64,000 bases of DNA from a virus: IMG/VR virus record IMGVR_UViG_3300024358_000010; one strand, given 5' to 3'. The notes beneath the pieces are model-generated. The model made no database searches. It worked only from the letters and a program-made list of their open reading frames with translations, and was not told where the DNA came from. A program made the position numbers and the translations under genes. Position 1 is the first letter of the stretch. Every line of letters starts with the position of its first letter. Of this stretch, positions 37,746 to 60,124 are shown one piece after another.

Positions 37746-38066
37746 TTATTTACCTTTCGCTTTTTTGCCCTGAATATAATGCGCAACGCCGGAAAGATTC
37801 TGCGCCGCCTCGGTGACCTGCGCCTTTAGCCAGTCAGGGGAGTCTTCGGAGGCTTTCATATGCTCCCTGATTTCTTGGACGTGGTGGACAATCTGTTCAA
37901 GATCAGAGAACATCATTTCTGACCCTTCTTCTTTGGCCATCTCGTTAACGCCTTCTCCACCTTTAATTGGGTTGGATGGCGATGGGACGATGGAAACATC
38001 TTCTTTAGACATTTCGTTTTTAACTAGCGACCATTGACCATTTTGGGATTTAATTAGCTTTTCCAT
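37746..38066 (-). CDS. small putative internal head protein
   Basis: LIKSQNGQWSLVK, EGVNEMAKE and DWLKAQVTEAA..L..VAHYI modules. Confidence 0.62.
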   Translation of the reverse strand: MEKLIKSQNGQWSLVKNEMSKEDVSIVPSPSNPIKGGEGVNEMAKEEGSEMMFSDLEQIVHHVQEIREHMKASEDSPDWLKAQVTEAAQNLSGVAHYIQGKKAKGK

Positions 38067-53536: not shown

Positions 53537-55474
53537 TTATTCTTTTTCGGTATCTGCGGCAACGTTGATTGGGTTTCTTGTCATCTTGCCTTCAACGTTT
53601 GAGGCGCGAGTCGCGCCAAATTCTTTGGCAGTCTCTTGCAATTGCTGCACGGGCGATTGGCCTGCCTTTACTGCGGCCTCAGCTGCTGCTTGTTTTCTAC
53701 CTTCGGTATCGTGATCAACCTGCTGGCGCTGAAGATCTTGCTCGTGTTCCATTTGCTGCTGCTGCATTGCCATCTGTTGTTGCTGCTGATCTTTTGCTTC
53801 TTTCTGAGCCTGTTTAGTCATAAGCATATTTTGCCACTGCAGGAACATTGGATCGCCAGGAAGATATTGGAGTTCTTGTCGTTGAGTCGCGCCTGCATCG
53901 CCTAAGAAGACTTCTCGCTGCTCGCCTTTGGTCATCATCTTGTCGACCAGTCCCCAAAATGCTTGATTAAGCGGCAAATTCGCAATCGGATGGTCAATAG
54001 GTTTACGATCTTCATTCTTAAGCAGATCGTTCATAGAAGAAAACACGGTCATCTGCGCTTGACGAAGCGAGATATCGGTTTGCGCCGTGTCGTCTGTGTA
54101 CCCTACGAACTTAAATTTATATTTAGATGCGAGCTCTTTATCTAAAGCAGGGACTACGTCTTGGTTGATCAGATCTTCAATAAAGTAAAGAATTGGCAGC
54201 AAACCTCTCTCGCGAGAGTACGTGATCTTGAATTGTCCAGATTCTTTAGCTTGAGATGCGGCACGACCGTTGGCGGTTGTAAGATAATCTAAACCTACTT
54301 CGATGGGGTCGATCTGAAACTGAGCACAGATGGATCGCATGACGTGCGAATTGAAGTTGATGTACTCCATCTCGCGTGCAGACCCTGACATTGGTATCCA
54401 CTGGACATCATCCAGCCCTGATACAATCGGTGTGCGCCAAGCGTTATTCGAGCCCGAAATAGTATTGTAGAACTGACGACGGAAAGACGCCAGAGTGTTT
54501 TGAGTAACTGTTCCTTTGAGATGCAGGATCCCTCTAGCCGCATATCCGTGCGTAAAGTAGTTTGCATTGTAGGATTCAACGTTGAGATGGTTTGTGATCA
54601 TGATCACGGCTTGCTCGACCATCGAGATCGCGTAGCCGTTGGAGTCGGCAAAGTTCTTTGGGTTGAAGAGTTTGAAGACCATGTCTTCATCGCCAAACAC
54701 GTTTACGACGCGCATGTCCATGGTCTGCTGAACGTACTTTAGGTACTCCATGTCAGGAGTATTGATCTGACCGTCACCCCTTGGGTCATTGTCAGAGCGC
54801 TTTTTGTGGTAAAGCTCCAGCGCGACTTTTGCCTGATTCTCAACCGCATCCTTGGAGACGTTTGGGTTGACACGGTAAACAGTCTCTGCGGGAAGAGGGC
54901 GAAAGCGATGGAGAGAACCTTTGCGAGTAAGCACCTTCTCTACGGCGATATGGCCAAAGGTTAGTGCGTCCCAGGTGATCAACTTTACGAACTCACCGAA
55001 CAGCATCTCCTCGCCGCGGGGCGTTGCGTCGGTACGACCACAGTGATAAATATAGTCTTCTAGCATCCGGATGTTATCGATATCTTCTTGGGTAACTGGT
55101 TCATTTTGGTTGGCCTTAACAAACCGGTACCCCATGTCATACTTCTTCTCCTGAGGACGAGAGAAGCGCAGAACTGTATCGCAACGAATCTGCAAAATTG
55201 CATTTACTAGCCAATCTCGCATAGAGATTTCTCTAAGGGTGCGGTTGGCTATTCTAGAGATTTTTGATTTAGAAAGAAAGTAATTATGAGCAGCGTGATC
55301 GTAATACGGATCGGTAAGTATAGCTTTGCTGCCAACGAGCTGACCCTGATCTTGAGCTTCATTTTTAGGCTGAGAAGAGTCGGATAGACGGTCGGCTTCA
55401 GACTTAGTTAAGTCCTCGATATCTTTACGAAGAGAATCAGTAACTGCTTTTTTAATATCTTCAATCCAAGACAT
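53537..55474 (-). CDS. portal protein
   Basis: DALTFG, YGISxVE-like YAISMVE, NYFTHG..ARGIL, NAWRTPI, REMEY, FQIDPIEVG; located after the terminase; GGAG RBS before ATG 55474. Confidence 0.9.
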   Translation of the reverse strand: MSWIEDIKKAVTDSLRKDIEDLTKSEADRLSDSSQPKNEAQDQGQLVGSKAILTDPYYDHAAHNYFLSKSKISRIANRTLREISMRDWLVNAILQIRCDTVLRFSRPQEKKYDMGYRFVKANQNEPVTQEDIDNIRMLEDYIYHCGRTDATPRGEEMLFGEFVKLITWDALTFGHIAVEKVLTRKGSLHRFRPLPAETVYRVNPNVSKDAVENQAKVALELYHKKRSDNDPRGDGQINTPDMEYLKYVQQTMDMRVVNVFGDEDMVFKLFNPKNFADSNGYAISMVEQAVIMITNHLNVESYNANYFTHGYAARGILHLKGTVTQNTLASFRRQFYNTISGSNNAWRTPIVSGLDDVQWIPMSGSAREMEYINFNSHVMRSICAQFQIDPIEVGLDYLTTANGRAASQAKESGQFKITYSRERGLLPILYFIEDLINQDVVPALDKELASKYKFKFVGYTDDTAQTDISLRQAQMTVFSSMNDLLKNEDRKPIDHPIANLPLNQAFWGLVDKMMTKGEQREVFLGDAGATQRQELQYLPGDPMFLQWQNMLMTKQAQKEAKDQQQQQMAMQQQQMEHEQDLQRQQVDHDTEGRKQAAAEAAVKAGQSPVQQLQETAKEFGATRASNVEGKMTRNPINVAADTEKE

Positions 55475-55515
55475 CTTGGTCTCCAAGCTGACGGTAAGAC
55501 AACCATATTATACGA

Positions 55516-57042
55516 TCAAAAGGTCCATATAAAACCGCCGTCCGACCCTTGATCTTCGTTATCCTCTATATCAGACAGCCTTCCTATTTTACCCATCTTA
55601 TCCAGGTTAACTTCCGGATTAAACGGAATGTTGTTTACCTTAGCGTACTCTTCAGGTGTGGGCGGTTTAAAGAAGCTGCCGGTAGAATCAACTAATTTAG
55701 CCATGTCTACGTCTAAGCCAGCCGAAGAAAGGATGACAGCTGACTTGCTGAATAAATTAGTCATCGCATAGCGCAAAGCGTCAATCCAGTGATCGTGCTC
55801 TGTATCAGGATCATCCGTGATTTGACCTGATGCATCTACTTTGTAATGGTAGAGCTGGAACTCCCTTATCAAGGGCTGACAAGTTTCTTGTGCAAAAAAT
55901 ATCTTTGGCTCCCCGGTTCCTGGGACTTTTAACCATTTCTTTATGACCTGGATGCCAGTGTTTACTTGGCCCTTGTCAGTGTTAGTTGATGTGGGAAGAC
56001 CGAGCTTTCTCATCTCGACTGCGTCACCCGGATCGGCTTGATCTGGGAAGTAGAGCTGAACCCGATAAGCCTGGTGCCACTTATTCTTGACGTGGTGCAT
56101 CCAGGCAGGTCGAGATATGTACGTCATACCGTCGCATCTGACGACGTAGATGTTTTCCTTAGAGTCTACGAAAAAAGTTACCAAAGTATGAGGGTTAGAC
56201 CATCCCCAGTCGATACCCGAGTATGCTGGCAAACCCATTGCTAAACATTTCTTAACAAAGATATCGTGATTGCACTCGCCAGGAAATTCCTTGCCGGTAA
56301 GAGTGAGCCACATCTGATTCCATGTCCTGACGTGCGTACGCTCATCAAATTCCTTAAACACAATTCCCTCAACTGATGGTTTAAGATTCATCAGCTGTGA
56401 CATTGCCCAATCAGGACCTTCGGAAAGTATCTTCTGGGCAAGTTCGTCAATCGACTTGAGCATCGGCGATGTGGATGTTTGATTTTTGGCGTCACCTAAG
56501 CAGATTGGCGCAAGAGGGCACTTGTGGCAACCAGAATACATCTCGTACGGCGCGTAGTCTTTTTTCTTCTGCTCGCTGAGTTTATTGTATTCAGACGGAA
56601 GACGCATGTCGAATGAATTTTGGTCGATATAGTATTCTTGCTTAGTCGTACCGGATCTAGAGTCTGGGCAGCGCTCAGTAAACTCGAACGCGGTCCAGCG
56701 GCGAACATGTCTCCCCTGCTTCTCGGCATTCTCGATGGCTTGATTCATTAGCCCGTATCGAGATTTTCTAGTTGAGATACCCACTCTTAGCGGCTTCTTG
56801 CCCCGCTTGGAGTCGAGCATACCAGATATCTCTTTGTATGCCTTTAATCCTTCGCCAGAAACTGTGTCGATTTCATCGACCACAACCAGCGGTACGTGAG
56901 GTCCGTTGCAGTTGTGATTTATAGTGCCATCGATCGTAACAAATGAATTAGACATCGGATTTGTCGGATCCGAATTAGAACGAACCTCAAGTTTCGCTAT
57001 TTGTTTGACACCGGTTCGCTCGAGCTTTTTAATTTTAGCCAT
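55516..57042 (-). CDS. terminase large subunit, C-terminal part, fused to IntC of a split intein
   Basis: aa 1-44 IntC ending HN, then +1 Cys; Walker B VVVDEID, ISTRK coupling motif, nuclease GIDWGW, DQAD, DHWIDALRY. Confidence 0.92.
   Translation of the reverse strand: MAKIKKLERTGVKQIAKLEVRSNSDPTNPMSNSFVTIDGTINHNCNGPHVPLVVVDEIDTVSGEGLKAYKEISGMLDSKRGKKPLRVGISTRKSRYGLMNQAIENAEKQGRHVRRWTAFEFTERCPDSRSGTTKQEYYIDQNSFDMRLPSEYNKLSEQKKKDYAPYEMYSGCHKCPLAPICLGDAKNQTSTSPMLKSIDELAQKILSEGPDWAMSQLMNLKPSVEGIVFKEFDERTHVRTWNQMWLTLTGKEFPGECNHDIFVKKCLAMGLPAYSGIDWGWSNPHTLVTFFVDSKENIYVVRCDGMTYISRPAWMHHVKNKWHQAYRVQLYFPDQADPGDAVEMRKLGLPTSTNTDKGQVNTGIQVIKKWLKVPGTGEPKIFFAQETCQPLIREFQLYHYKVDASGQITDDPDTEHDHWIDALRYAMTNLFSKSAVILSSAGLDVDMAKLVDSTGSFFKPPTPEEYAKVNNIPFNPEVNLDKMGKIGRLSDIEDNEDQGSDGGFIWTF
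56911..57042 (-). other. split intein C-fragment (IntC, 44 aa)
   Basis: MAKIKKLERTGVKQIAKLEV...NSFVTIDGTINHN|C; blocks F and G. Confidence 0.88.
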
Positions 57043-57050
57043 ATATCACC

Positions 57051-57088
57051 TGGGTATATAGATCCCATGTCTAGTATCTATATACTCA
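57051..57088 (-). promoter_or_regulatory. 13-bp inverted repeat abutting the RBS of IntC-TerL
   Basis: TGGGTATATAGAT (57051-57063) and ATCTATATACTCA (57076-57088), one mismatch; AGGTG RBS at 57047-57051. Confidence 0.6.
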
Positions 57089-57109
57089 AAATGATAAGTA
57101 TTTATAGTT

Positions 57110-58009
57110 TTATAGACCGTGATGATGTTTAAAATGTGCAACACCGCGATCTACGACCGCGTCTTCGTGTGCTTTCAATTTACGTAGATCGCCACTCAGA
57201 GCATCTTCATACGTACTAGAAACCTTGTCGTTAAGCGCCTCGTGGCGAGCTGTTGTCGCGTCGTCTTTAGGTTTAGCGTTGCTATTATCGTACTCGTAAT
57301 AAAGAATATCACCGGGGGATGTAGCAGAAACAGTCTTGTGATGACCGTATGCGCCCAGATTCAAAGCTTGAACATCGCCAACTAGATGGGGTTTTAGTGC
57401 CAAATTGTCGTGATCGTGAAAAACAGTAGGACCATGTTTGCCCTCATGATAAGGATCGATATTTGCTCCTATTGCTCTACTTAAACCCTTTACAGCCTCA
57501 ATGCCGTGATGATCATGCACATCTTTTAAATTTTTAACAGAATCATCCAGATGACGATCAAAGGCATTGCGTAGATCTTCATGACTAAATCTTAGTCCAC
57601 CATGATGGGGCATATCTGAGGCTTTAAAAGCATCTGCAGCCTTATTTTGCAAGTAACTAAGGTGCCCTAAATCAATGGATCCAGGGCTAGCATTGTTTAC
57701 TAAATCTCTTATAGCACCAGAATGCTGCTGCAACGCCCGCGGAGACTTAGCATCAAGAGCGTCGTGATAATCAGCAAACATTTTATTAAGTTTAGCATTG
57801 TATTGAGTTTTGTTAGGTGCAGAATTCGCATCCACACAGGTGTAGTGGTGCATTTTGTCGTTTCTCATAGAGCCACCGCATATACATGCGTTTTGAGAAA
57901 TATGAGGTGCTTTTTCCCATATGGCTTTACTTAAAAGCTGCCATTGACCGTTTGATTTTACGAGCAATTCTTCTTTGTGCGTTTTTAACGACTTGATTAA
58001 ATTATTCAT
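57110..58009 (-). CDS. His-rich putative internal head protein
   Basis: N-terminus NLIKS..LLVKSNGQWQLLSKA shares the NGQW motif with ORF 37746. Confidence 0.6.
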   Translation of the reverse strand: MNNLIKSLKTHKEELLVKSNGQWQLLSKAIWEKAPHISQNACICGGSMRNDKMHHYTCVDANSAPNKTQYNAKLNKMFADYHDALDAKSPRALQQHSGAIRDLVNNASPGSIDLGHLSYLQNKAADAFKASDMPHHGGLRFSHEDLRNAFDRHLDDSVKNLKDVHDHHGIEAVKGLSRAIGANIDPYHEGKHGPTVFHDHDNLALKPHLVGDVQALNLGAYGHHKTVSATSPGDILYYEYDNSNAKPKDDATTARHEALNDKVSSTYEDALSGDLRKLKAHEDAVVDRGVAHFKHHHGL

Positions 58010-58541
58010 ATCGATCTCTTGGTGGCTTTGTTTTCAAATTTAAAAAATTAAAGAAATCGTTTTCGCTTTTAAATGTCAACTTTTCATTGGTTGATTTAAT
58101 CAATATAAAAGCTGGATTTTTCCACGACATTCCTTGACTTTCAAGGCTGTTTCTAATTCTACCATTATGGGCAGCCGACCCGGTTGCAAAAACTAAAACA
58201 TTTCCAAGGTTTTCATCAGTGTACGGAAATATATCTAATACTATTATCTTTCTTATATTAAAAAATTTAATCTTTTTAAGATACTGTCTGCTAAGAGTTG
58301 CATTGTGATTTCTCATAGGGTTCAGGAACCAGCCCATGCTTTTCATTTTAGAATCAAGATCTTGCATAAGATGTGCTGGAATTACGAGATCGATATCGCC
58401 GCAAATAAATTTAGATCTCCTATACGAACCTGCGATTAGGTATCCGTTTATGTTAAGTTTAAAAGTTATAAACTTTACAATAAGATATACGATAAATCTT
58501 GGTAATTTTAATTGCAAATTATTTGGCACCGATATAGCCAT
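58002..58541 (-). CDS. minimal DNA polymerase X (Pol beta-like nucleotidyltransferase)
   Basis: AGSYRR..CGDIDLVI, third Asp in VLDIF, FATGSAAHN..IR, SENDFF.FL...PRDR; 179 aa; very AT-rich. Confidence 0.88.
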   Translation of the reverse strand: MAISVPNNLQLKLPRFIVYLIVKFITFKLNINGYLIAGSYRRSKFICGDIDLVIPAHLMQDLDSKMKSMGWFLNPMRNHNATLSRQYLKKIKFFNIRKIIVLDIFPYTDENLGNVLVFATGSAAHNGRIRNSLESQGMSWKNPAFILIKSTNEKLTFKSENDFFNFLNLKTKPPRDRYE

Positions 58542-58566
58542 AATGCACTCTCTAATATTAATAATA

Positions 58567-59514
58567 TTAAATCGTTATAACGTCATCGATATCAGTAAGA
58601 TGCTGCAATTCTACCCAACCTCGTTGAGTCCAAACCTTATGGTCAAGCGTTCCTTCGATTATTCTTCCATCTTCTAACTCTACTCTGACACATTCCGCAT
58701 CTTCAAGTTGATTGTCTATTACTTCAACAAAACCAATAGTATTTTTAATTAAATCCCCTGGTTTAAAATCCGCTAATATTTTTGGCACACCATTGCCATC
58801 GATTGACATAGTACAAGAAGTTAAACAGGCTTTTAATGTGCATGGAATCACTTCAAGTGTGACCTTCTCACCCGTAACATTAAATACCGATTTTTCCATC
58901 GTAAATTTTTCAAGAATACGGTCGGCTTCTTGTGTTTTAGGTGGCAAAATTAACGGTTTAATTCTGTCGGACATCAGAAACTTTTGCTGATACTCGTAGC
59001 ATCGTTTTGCCTGTGATAGAATCGCACCCACATGAACAACATCGCGCTGATCGTGCAAAAGTATTAGAAGTTCGGCGATAGCCATGCCAAGTGTTTTTCC
59101 AGAGCCCCTACCGGCAACGTATAGCAACTCTTGCACATTTTGCGGATTATCGTTGTTAACGCAAATATTATAAGCTTCCCATATCGCGTGAAAAGGCGTC
59201 GTATCCGCATAGCGGGAAACCTTGCAATCTGGCAGCTGGAGGTTAAAAAAGTATTTAATATAGTTCTTTAGATCTTTCTCTGTTCGGCACGGCGTAAGAA
59301 AGATCTTTTCGAGCTGCGCCATTGTCAGGTGTGCGGCTCTCTCAGACATTCTCTGAGAAGCTTGCTGCTGCTTTGCGACCTTAGTTAAGGCCGTCTGCTC
59401 GGCGCGCTTCTTAGGAAGCTCGATAAACTTCTTATAATGGTTGCCGCAGTAACCTTTTGCCTTGATCGGCTTACCGCACCCGGTGACTGAGCAAAACTTA
59501 GACTCGTCACTCAT
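58567..59514 (-). CDS. terminase large subunit, N-terminal part, fused to IntN of a split intein
   Basis: Walker A AGRGSGKT, GAILSQA; aa 230-315 are IntN; N-terminal CxxxGC..GYCxxHY finger. Confidence 0.9.
   Translation of the reverse strand: MSDESKFCSVTGCGKPIKAKGYCGNHYKKFIELPKKRAEQTALTKVAKQQQASQRMSERAAHLTMAQLEKIFLTPCRTEKDLKNYIKYFFNLQLPDCKVSRYADTTPFHAIWEAYNICVNNDNPQNVQELLYVAGRGSGKTLGMAIAELLILLHDQRDVVHVGAILSQAKRCYEYQQKFLMSDRIKPLILPPKTQEADRILEKFTMEKSVFNVTGEKVTLEVIPCTLKACLTSCTMSIDGNGVPKILADFKPGDLIKNTIGFVEVIDNQLEDAECVRVELEDGRIIEGTLDHKVWTQRGWVELQHLTDIDDVITI
58570..58827 (-). other. split intein N-fragment (IntN, 86 aa)
   Basis: Block A CLTSCT..., block B GTLDHKVWT, GWV...L...D, then stop. Confidence 0.88.
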
Positions 59515-60124
59515 CTTCTGGGTCCTGGACTAATTGGGCCAAGAGAACAGACTCGTCGGCTGGTTCTGGTTTGGGTAGGGCTTTAGGTTTGCTTGATTTA
59601 GACAAAAGTTTAGGTTGATCAGTCTCTGCAGGAGCAGAAAGGGCTCTAACTGAGTCTGCGACTTTCGCCAGCATCTCTATTACCTGCTGGTATTCTTTTA
59701 AACTTTTGATTCTCATCTGAGGAGGAGGCGCTTTAGAAGGATCTTGGAGATACTTGCGCATCTCCTCCATGTTCTCTGTGGTAGAGACAGACACCATGTC
59801 TGTAAGAAACTCAACCTGCTCGACGGTGGATTTAACTATGCGGGCCCGAATCCTGTCATATATTGAGTTGGCTAACTTTTCACGATCTTTAACCCACCCG
59901 TTTAAGGCAGCCGTCAGCGAGATTTTTCCCAAAGAATATTGGGGAAATTTCCTGCTTAGATCTTCTAACGAATAGCCAAGCAGGAAAAGTTCGTAAACGG
60001 GCATAGCCTCTTGCTTGCCCATGGCGCCTGCGGTCTTATGCTGACGAAGATACTTTTCGGCCTCGCGGACCTGATCGAAACTAAGTCCGTAGCGTTCTTC
60101 AGCGTTCAGTCTCTTTTTTAGCAA
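59507..60124 (-). CDS. putative terminase small subunit
   Basis: Helical/HTH-like protein directly upstream of TerL-N. Confidence 0.5.
   Translation of the reverse strand: MLKKRLNAEERYGLSFDQVREAEKYLRQHKTAGAMGKQEAMPVYELFLLGYSLEDLSRKFPQYSLGKISLTAALNGWVKDREKLANSIYDRIRARIVKSTVEQVEFLTDMVSVSTTENMEEMRKYLQDPSKAPPPQMRIKSLKEYQQVIEMLAKVADSVRALSAPAETDQPKLLSKSSKPKALPKPEPADESVLLAQLVQDPEDE

Follow-up and report, generated by a model that had tools for sequence, protein, structure and literature searches.

A large terminase gene of an uncultured riverine phage, very probably fractured by a split intein, with a predicted minimal polymerase and an orphan partner in the gap

How can a phage package its DNA if the catalytic motifs of its large terminase (TerL) are encoded by two separate genes? 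The question is raised by positions 55516-59514 of a 64,000-nucleotide stretch of the IMG/VR virus record IMGVR_UViG_3300024358_000010 (the whole stretch is referred to as the window). There, one open reading frame (ORF), TerL-N, encodes a Walker A motif, another, TerL-C, encodes Walker B and an RNaseH-like nuclease domain, and two further genes lie between them. An initial annotation of the window read the two ORFs as halves of a single TerL gene split by an intein. We conclude that the gene is very probably fractured by a genuine class 1 split intein, that the gap between the halves holds cargo, namely a predicted minimal family X DNA polymerase (PolX) and a 299-residue partner, and that the complete terminase would be restored by protein trans-splicing. 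All four ORFs of the locus are located on the minus strand and the portal gene (53537-55486, Pfam Phage_portal) directly follows TerL-C. The parts of the split gene are as follows.

58567-59514, minus strand: TerL-N gene from the ORF list, 315 residues, N-extein followed by the N-terminal intein half (IntN)
58828-59514, minus strand: N-extein, 229 residues, ending ...PCTLKA, with Walker A GRGSGKT and an N-terminal zinc-finger-like motif CxxC...GYCxxHY
58570-58827, minus strand: IntN, 86 residues (stop codon 58567-58569), with Cys1, block B T60-x-x-H63 and a net charge of about -10
57043-57109, minus strand: intergenic leader of TerL-C, with an AT-rich hairpin, the Shine-Dalgarno sequence AGGTGA (57046-57051) and, two codons ahead of the ATG, an in-frame TGA
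55516-57042, minus strand: TerL-C gene, 508 residues, C-terminal intein half (IntC) first, then the C-extein
56911-57042, minus strand: IntC, 44 residues, ending ...TINHN, with a net charge of +3, aligned by profile A4 and co-folded with IntN
55516-56910, minus strand: C-extein, 464 residues, with the +1 Cys, Walker B VVVDE and the RNaseH-like nuclease domain; phrog_5653 (2.4e-22) and Terminase_3C
56908-58837, minus strand: entire insertion (IntN, the two cargo genes and IntC), delimited by blastn against the empty-site relative L048

The ORF coordinates, Cys1, the TxxH and HN/C motifs (slashes within motifs mark predicted splice junctions), the charge counts and the joined product of 693 residues (229 + 464) given in the initial annotation were all reproduced. 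TerL-N reads ...PCTLKA/CLTSCT...GTLDHKVWT...DVITI*; after TINHN/C of IntC, TerL-C continues NGPHVPLVVVDEID, and CNGPHVPLVVVDEID is likewise read right after the 44-residue IntC. IntN contains 17 acidic (D/E) and 7 basic (K/R) residues, IntC 4 and 7, respectively. TerL-C passes the Pfam model Terminase_3C (28.7 bits, cut-off 26.7), and with Walker A on TerL-N, Walker B and the nuclease domain on TerL-C and the portal gene downstream, all the features by which we assign the locus to TerL are present. GC content is 0.45-0.47 in the exteins, 0.364 in IntN, 0.317 in the PolX gene, 0.419 in the 299-residue gene and 0.394 in IntC.

Do the two ORFs belong to one gene? The megablast search of the locus against GenBank phages gave no match, and by tblastn Myxococcus phage Mx1 (169.6 kb) was the sole full-length relative among them. 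Its gene order around TerL (phosphoesterase, small ORFs, TerL, portal) resembles that of the window, and its TerL is a single gene of 667 residues that aligns to residues 70-189 of TerL-N (BLASTP, 2e-19) and to residues 29-508 of TerL-C (4e-44). The Mx1 junction reads ...TLAGANSEHVSFMVLDELD / ...IIIATLAGANSEHVSFMVLDELD, where the joined window exteins read ...VIPCTLKACNGPHVPLVVVDEID. A much closer homologue, P0001, was found in a large protein database; it is an uninterrupted TerL of exactly 693 residues and reads ...TMRALNGPHV... straight across the junction. Its identity to the window is 98.5% in the C-extein (residues 230-693, direct count; 99% in the search over the matched part) and 92% in the N-extein (its residues 1-229). 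The joined exteins align across the junction without a gap with both P0001 and the Mx1 TerL, and their match to the intein-free 693-residue homologue is far beyond chance. Moreover, the contig encoding P0001 (L048) is collinear with the window, with flanks of 91.6% and 93.7% nucleotide identity by blastn, and the sole difference between them is a 1.93-kb segment, 56908-58837, present in the window only. The window belongs to an 87.5-kb record with an estimated completeness of 53%, and the public runs that contain the stretch are riverine metagenomes and metatranscriptomes. The source is an uncultured riverine phage distantly related to Mx1.

The initial annotation had kept in view that the insert might be a misassembly, i.e. 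that the 1.5 kb of cargo had been joined in between the halves by chimeric assembly, and the fall in GC to 0.32-0.36 over IntN and PolX could be taken in that sense. Against it, 55448-59700 is covered by DNA contigs from two runs with zero differences, and both the IntN/PolX junction (58169-59700) and the junction of the 299-residue gene with IntC (55448-58122) are bridged by RNA-library contigs that were assembled separately. The gene order also recurs in L016 and L017, which come from other metagenomes, at 73-85% identity in the exteins, 56% in PolX and 36-39% in the 299-residue protein. A chimera is thus hardly credible. A search of the region with Rfam intron families gave none at E up to 1, and an RNA intron as the explanation of the interruption is unsupported.

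Is the interrupting element an intein? The class 1 nucleophile, Cys230 of TerL-N, stands directly after ...TLKA and is invariant in nine of nine aligned sequences, as is the His of block B (T60-L-D-H63 of IntN, in GTLDHKVW); the block B Thr is retained in all eight split alleles and is Lys in a contiguous relative, P0017. At the other end, TerL-C has ...TINHN/C, and HN and the following NGPH are invariant in the alignment. Cys1, T..H, HN and the +1 Cys are together retained in 8/8 split alleles from separate metagenomes at an IntN identity of 40-79%, and the ratio of nonsynonymous to synonymous substitution rates (dN/dS) is 0.04-0.23 for both halves wherever dS is unsaturated. A profile of nine IntN sequences (A3) searched against PDB sequences matches the gp41-1 split intein (6qaz) with an E value of 4.4e-6, followed by the DnaE, PolC, DnaB, RecA and NrdJ-1 inteins, and the IntC profile (A4, 49 columns) can be aligned over its full length with the C-terminal ends of the Mxe GyrA intein and of Npu DnaE IntC (E 0.15). 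Co-folding, a check that the initial annotation had proposed, came out in favour of a complex: IntN(224-315) with IntC(1-52) reached an ipSAE of 0.64 compared with 0.00 for the best of three controls. Among solved complexes 51 of 78 attained this level, among mismatched pairs 2 of 108. The runs share at least 93% of contacts, the pLDDT of the partners is at least 69, and the tightest contacts are formed by antiparallel strands, IntN 264-278 with IntC 7-20. We therefore place the element in the HINT group and its halves as complementing each other, on the basis of the IntN profile matches, the marginal IntC match and the co-fold against its controls. The reading of the two ORFs as halves of one intein-split TerL is accordingly sustained by the collinear intein-free terminases, the link of IntN to gp41-1, the co-fold and the contiguous intein that P0017 carries at the same site.

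Several observations weigh against this assignment. The Asp and His of block F are absent, their positions being occupied by Lys and Asn across the split alleles; sequence support for IntC is marginal (E 0.047 for Mxe GyrA); and the search of the fragments with Hint models proposed in the initial annotation was borne out only in part, with no match of Pfam Hint/intein models at E up to 1 on either half and the profile match of IntN on the other side. As solved split-intein complexes exist, the pass in co-folding expresses likeness to them and is not an independent proof. On the side of the assemblies, the source sample may be among the DNA runs with the stretch, and DNA can be present in RNA libraries, so that the RNA contigs cannot prove transcription. 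As to block F, its Asp and His are common in inteins and not universal. The alignment column that holds Lys in IntC, which we take to be the block F Asp position, holds Ser rather than Asp in the Mxe GyrA intein, an efficient splicer. Judged from the alignments, the replacements lower the certainty, yet splicing is still probable.

The same replacements are the main point for a different view, namely that the halves no longer splice and only hold TerL-N and TerL-C together non-covalently as a two-chain enzyme. The penultimate His is likewise A, R or K in the sibling alleles P0024, P0053 and P0056, and the co-fold speaks for association and not for chemistry. A dimerisation module, however, needs none of Cys1, T..H, the terminal Asn and the +1 Cys, which are invariant in the eight alleles in spite of their divergence; the dN/dS is low, and the Mxe GyrA intein, which splices, has Ser in the column of the Lys. 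We consider a purely two-chain enzyme quite improbable. Still less credence, and very little in absolute terms, is given to a terminase broken in a defective or decaying phage, with the intein-like ends as relics. Such decay would fit the record's completeness of only about 53% and a cargo without a nuclease that could explain upkeep by homing, but many diverged lineages retain the architecture, both frames being intact and under purifying selection, and TerL-C has its own strong Shine-Dalgarno sequence and start. Furthermore, 14 DNA runs contain the stretch, with a contig depth of 68-96 in the two compared in detail, the exteins of sibling alleles showed neither frameshifts nor stops, and no dN/dS near 1 was seen.

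With a functional split intein as the preferred reading, how would the terminase be made? The intein interrupts TerL at a point eight residues ahead of the Walker B strand (...TLKA / C-NGPHVPLVVVDE...). Each half would be a separate translation product, TerL-C starting from its own AGGTGA site, which is located three bases ahead of its ATG. Acidic IntN and basic IntC would then associate through the long antiparallel beta-strand pair and form the HINT fold. Class 1 chemistry would follow: Cys1 would undergo an N-S acyl shift, the chain would pass to the +1 Cys by trans-thioesterification, the terminal Asn would cyclise and an S-N shift would come last. The predicted product is the 693-residue TerL, a single chain that unites Walker A and Walker B. 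If the halves neither spliced nor at least associated tightly, the ATPase site would be divided. Packaging should hence depend on the intein, as the initial annotation had proposed, because Walker A is encoded on one half and Walker B and the nuclease domain on the other. Trans-splicing activity is backed indirectly, by the purifying selection and by the essential nature of the host gene.

Two further features of the split gene were observed. An AT-rich hairpin at about 57047-57088 (minus strand) has an extended stem that pairs with the AGGTGA of TerL-C (minimum free energy -20.5 kcal/mol, z -3.8, RNA fold); alleles with different cargo do not conserve it, and it may regulate translation of the C-half. 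The first 40 or so residues of TerL-N (59400-59514, minus strand) form the zinc-finger-like motif CSVTGCGKPIKAKGYCGNHYKKF, which matches phrog_5351 and has no counterpart in the Mx1 TerL, the alignment of which starts at about residue 48 of TerL-N. For the homologous region in P0009, the match is Zf_WRKY19. The motif recurs several times in HNH endonucleases encoded in the gap of L003, L018 and L038 (e.g. L038:4745-4852; phrog_5351), and domain exchange between endonuclease and terminase is a possible explanation of its presence in both.

How did the terminase come to be broken at this position? The comparison of related phages that the initial annotation had suggested revealed empty, contiguous-intein and split TerL alleles at the same site. 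P0017 has a contiguous intein (TIKS/CNDPES...VSHN/TNGPH) matching Pfam Intein_splicing and LAGLIDADG_2, and because its endonuclease domain starts exactly where IntN of the window ends, the window intein is split at the canonical position. The site is split in L003, L004, L006-L008, L016-L018, L020 and L038-L045. The best 120 TerL homologues comprise about 20 split C-halves, one protein with a contiguous intein and more than 90 that are intein-free at the site, with Cys at the +1 position in 59 of the latter. The more distant split alleles P0024, P0042, P0053, P0056 and P0084 end HAN/C, HRN/C or HKN/C, without the penultimate His of block G.

The element behaves as mobile DNA. Nucleotide identity to L048 drops to 0.63, 0.72 and 0.59 over the last 150 nucleotides of the N-extein and is 0.77 over the first 60 nucleotides of the C-extein, compared with about 0.9 or more farther off. 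Such a gradient is the pattern expected from a mobile element copied with donor flanks (co-conversion). Near-identical backbones have the site empty or carry a different split allele with an HNH gene: the window and L003 are 98% identical in the exteins, 73% in IntN and 84% in IntC, with different cargo, and L003 and L038 are 95% identical in IntC and 82-89% in the exteins. These discordant identities, together with the empty site of L048, show an exchange of intein-plus-cargo units between phage backbones.

Other inteins were also seen in these terminases. A P-loop intein (GSGK/C...HN/T) occurs in P0014, L007, L011, L018 and L038, and a LAGLIDADG intein in the nuclease domain (KK/CFSDD...SGN/CHNMG) in P0003 and L038-L045, so that a single TerL can have up to three inteins including a split one (L038-L045, e.g. 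L038:2233-9661).

What occupies the break? The gap between the intein halves differs strongly among the split alleles.

L003: 298-residue HNH/EndoVII-like gene
L004, L006, L007, L008: 550-560-residue Vsr-like homing endonuclease (phrog_3339; DUF559 in the L018 copy)
L018: HNH/EndoVII-like and Vsr-like genes on opposite strands
L038-L045: HNH/EndoVII-like and Vsr-like genes on the same strand
L057, L058: EndoVII-like genes of 197-232 residues
L056: no gene (70 nucleotides)
L020: trypsin-like protease gene (Trypsin_2, 1.5e-6)
Window, L016, L017: PolX and the 299-residue gene

Sibling alleles therefore do have a free-standing endonuclease between the intein halves. In the window no free-standing homing endonuclease was found in the gap, as both genes match no nuclease family in Pfam, PHROG, PDB sequences or fold searches. 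PolX with the 299-residue gene is a gap cargo of the window plus one diverged lineage (L016/L017) only. Since the gap in relatives holds homing endonuclease genes, the pair is best described from these comparisons as unrelated cargo at what is the endonuclease site elsewhere, a point on which the initial annotation is upheld by the HNH/EndoVII-like and Vsr-like genes. The break is located exactly where the LAGLIDADG domain sits in the contiguous relative and free-standing endonucleases in other split alleles. The protease gene of L020, a 126-kb relative, is located at L020:6251-6994 and encodes 247 residues of a trypsin-like serine protease with the motifs TAAHC and GMSGGP.

The cargo genes of the window are the following.

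58002-58541, minus strand: cargo gene 1, predicted minimal PolX-family nucleotidyltransferase, 179 residues, palm and thumb only, Asp triad D49, D51, D103
57110-58009, minus strand: cargo gene 2, helical orphan of 299 residues, N-terminal LIK...GQW motif, D113, H153 and G169 conserved

The identity of the cargo given in the initial annotation held for one gene of the two. PolX is supported by Pfam models for palm (25.5, cut-off 25) and thumb (34.7, cut-off 25), by a profile/sequence match to Pol lambda (E 1.7e-4) and by an AlphaFold2 (AF2) model with a pLDDT of 88.5, which Foldseek relates to Pol beta/lambda (E 5e-13, TMq 0.63-0.75). The Asp triad is invariant in five diverged homologues. At 179 residues the protein is too short for the 8-kDa and fingers domains, and only the palm and thumb models match; sequence and model alike identify it as a family X DNA polymerase apparently reduced to these two domains. 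The second gene had been labelled an NGQW head protein. It has no Pfam, PHROG or PDB-sequence match, and its fold, sought in Foldseek PDB, BFVD, VIA-align wide, ESM Atlas and atlas features, gave only generic helical-bundle matches, the best of them (Z 9.3) below the meaningful level for helical proteins (AF2 model pLDDT 80). The sole basis for the label is an N-terminal motif. A 106-residue ORF in the structural block (37746-38066, minus strand) starts MEKLIKSQNGQWSLVK, nearly the same as the N-terminal motif of the 299-residue family (MEKLIK..LGQW.LVK in L054 and L055). The label is therefore unproven, and the common N-terminus may be a targeting tag. An HD-domain reading was dropped, as the HD pair is not invariant, and the hypothetical gene that Mx1 has between TerL and portal was rejected as a counterpart of the 299-residue gene, the two having no similarity.

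Where does the pair occur elsewhere? An exhaustive profile search of 1.84 billion representatives gave 43 relatives of the 299-residue protein, a family visible only to this kind of search, as word-indexed protein searches gave almost nothing. Pattern-based locus searches with the PolX and 299-residue alignments returned only the L016/L017 contigs. PolX and 299-type genes are paired in L016/L017, L053, L054, L055 and the contig of P0128, and in the last four they are adjacent without a terminase or intein around them. We conclude from this adjacency outside any terminase or intein context that the pair is, in all appearance, a pre-existing module captured in the gap. In L053, L054 and L055 the minimal PolX adjoins a partner of 285-319 residues in unrelated phage contexts; the L055 pair lies downstream of a Band_7 gene, and lysine-rich CxxC proteins follow the pair in L054 and L055. 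In two runs, the RNA-library contigs are interrupted within the PolX gene, at about 58122-58169, where DNA contigs continue. A promoter-like site is present at 58144-58116 on the coding strand (TTGAAA, 17 nucleotides, AAAAAT, with TG), a weak hint of a possible internal transcript start for the 299-residue gene.

The gap would act as a tolerated cargo site, given that a conserved PolX/299 module is found there and also elsewhere in phage genomes. One may go further and regard it as a portable cargo bay, in which the intein halves serve as homology arms, sibling endonucleases cut empty sites and non-nuclease genes spread between co-infecting phages. The minimal PolX with its constant 299-residue partner and the serine protease of L020 are the candidates for such cargo, and the PolX/299 pair would be an undescribed two-protein module, maybe delivered with the virion in view of the N-terminal motif that it has in common with a small ORF of the structural block. 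We put this forward as speculation that is more likely wrong than right.

Fractured phage terminase genes have been known since 2009 and split inteins of TerL have been characterised (PMC2677866; PMC11766414). What is newly seen, and well supported, is a family of canonically split TerL inteins with interchangeable cargo, which in the window is non-nuclease. A single TerL site displays every stage of an intein: empty, contiguous with LAGLIDADG, split with HNH/EndoVII-like or Vsr-like genes, split with a bare gap, and split with non-nuclease cargo. The TerL family thus offers a well-suited natural setting in which to ask what makes inteins break, by what route free-standing endonucleases and other genes enter the break, and in what way the cassettes pass from one near-identical phage to the next. 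In addition, it supplies about 10 diverged, canonically split Cys1/Cys+1 pairs, distant from gp41-1, as candidates for screens of speed and orthogonality. As for the cargo, it suggests that a minimal PolX and an orphan partner form a conserved pair in phages. Knowledge of how split inteins work is unchanged by the window allele.

How does the locus compare with known systems? African swine fever virus Pol X is a minimal family X polymerase of 174 residues. The cargo PolX resembles it in its 179 residues, palm and thumb only, and intact Asp triad. It differs in that no direct match was obtained, Pol lambda and Pol beta being the best, and in being a phage gene always found beside a partner of 285-319 residues. 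The closest precedent for the arrangement is the fractured genes defined by Dassa, London, Stoddard, Schueler-Furman and Pietrokovski (Dassa et al. 2009; PMC2677866), with phage terminase among eight host types, Vsr-like and GIY-YIG endonucleases in the gap, and a locus, gp41-7, without endonuclease. As in these, a phage housekeeping gene is found in two ORFs with complementary intein halves and coding DNA between them; Vsr-like genes occupy the gap of the siblings L004, L007, L018 and L038, and L056 is endonuclease-free like gp41-7 (PMC2677866). The window differs in a gap with a minimal PolX and an orphan 299-residue gene and no endonuclease.

Among solved structures, the gp41-1 intein (PDB 6qaz, 6riz) is the one that the IntN profile matches best; it shares the canonical split position and similar lengths of the halves, and the opposite net charges of the window halves fit the salt-bridged interface modelled for it (PMC2677866). 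In contrast, the two are distant in sequence, the host gene of gp41-1 is a helicase rather than a terminase, the +1 residue in the window is Cys, and its block F Asp and His are replaced. AceL-TerL and GOS-TerL are natural split inteins of phage large terminase genes from metagenomes for which trans-splicing has been shown, and are thus like the window naturally split inteins in TerL genes (PMC11766414). By their descriptions they are set apart by an atypical split, with an IntN of 25 or 37 residues and an IntC of 104 or 115, whereas the window has 86 and 44 at the canonical endonuclease site (PMC11766414). Finally, TerL inteins are common in mycobacteriophages, where they cluster in the ATPase domain by the P-loop and Walker B, and intein-free partner phages exist (Kelley et al. 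2016; PMC5050341). Relatives of the window also have an intein at the P-loop, between K and T (P0014; L007, L011, L018, L038). Unlike in the window, the mycobacteriophage inteins are contiguous and encode their endonucleases in frame, and none of the seven sites is outside the ATPase domain (PMC5050341), whereas the window relatives P0003 and L038 have a nuclease-domain intein as well, and some of their terminases contain three inteins, one of them split.

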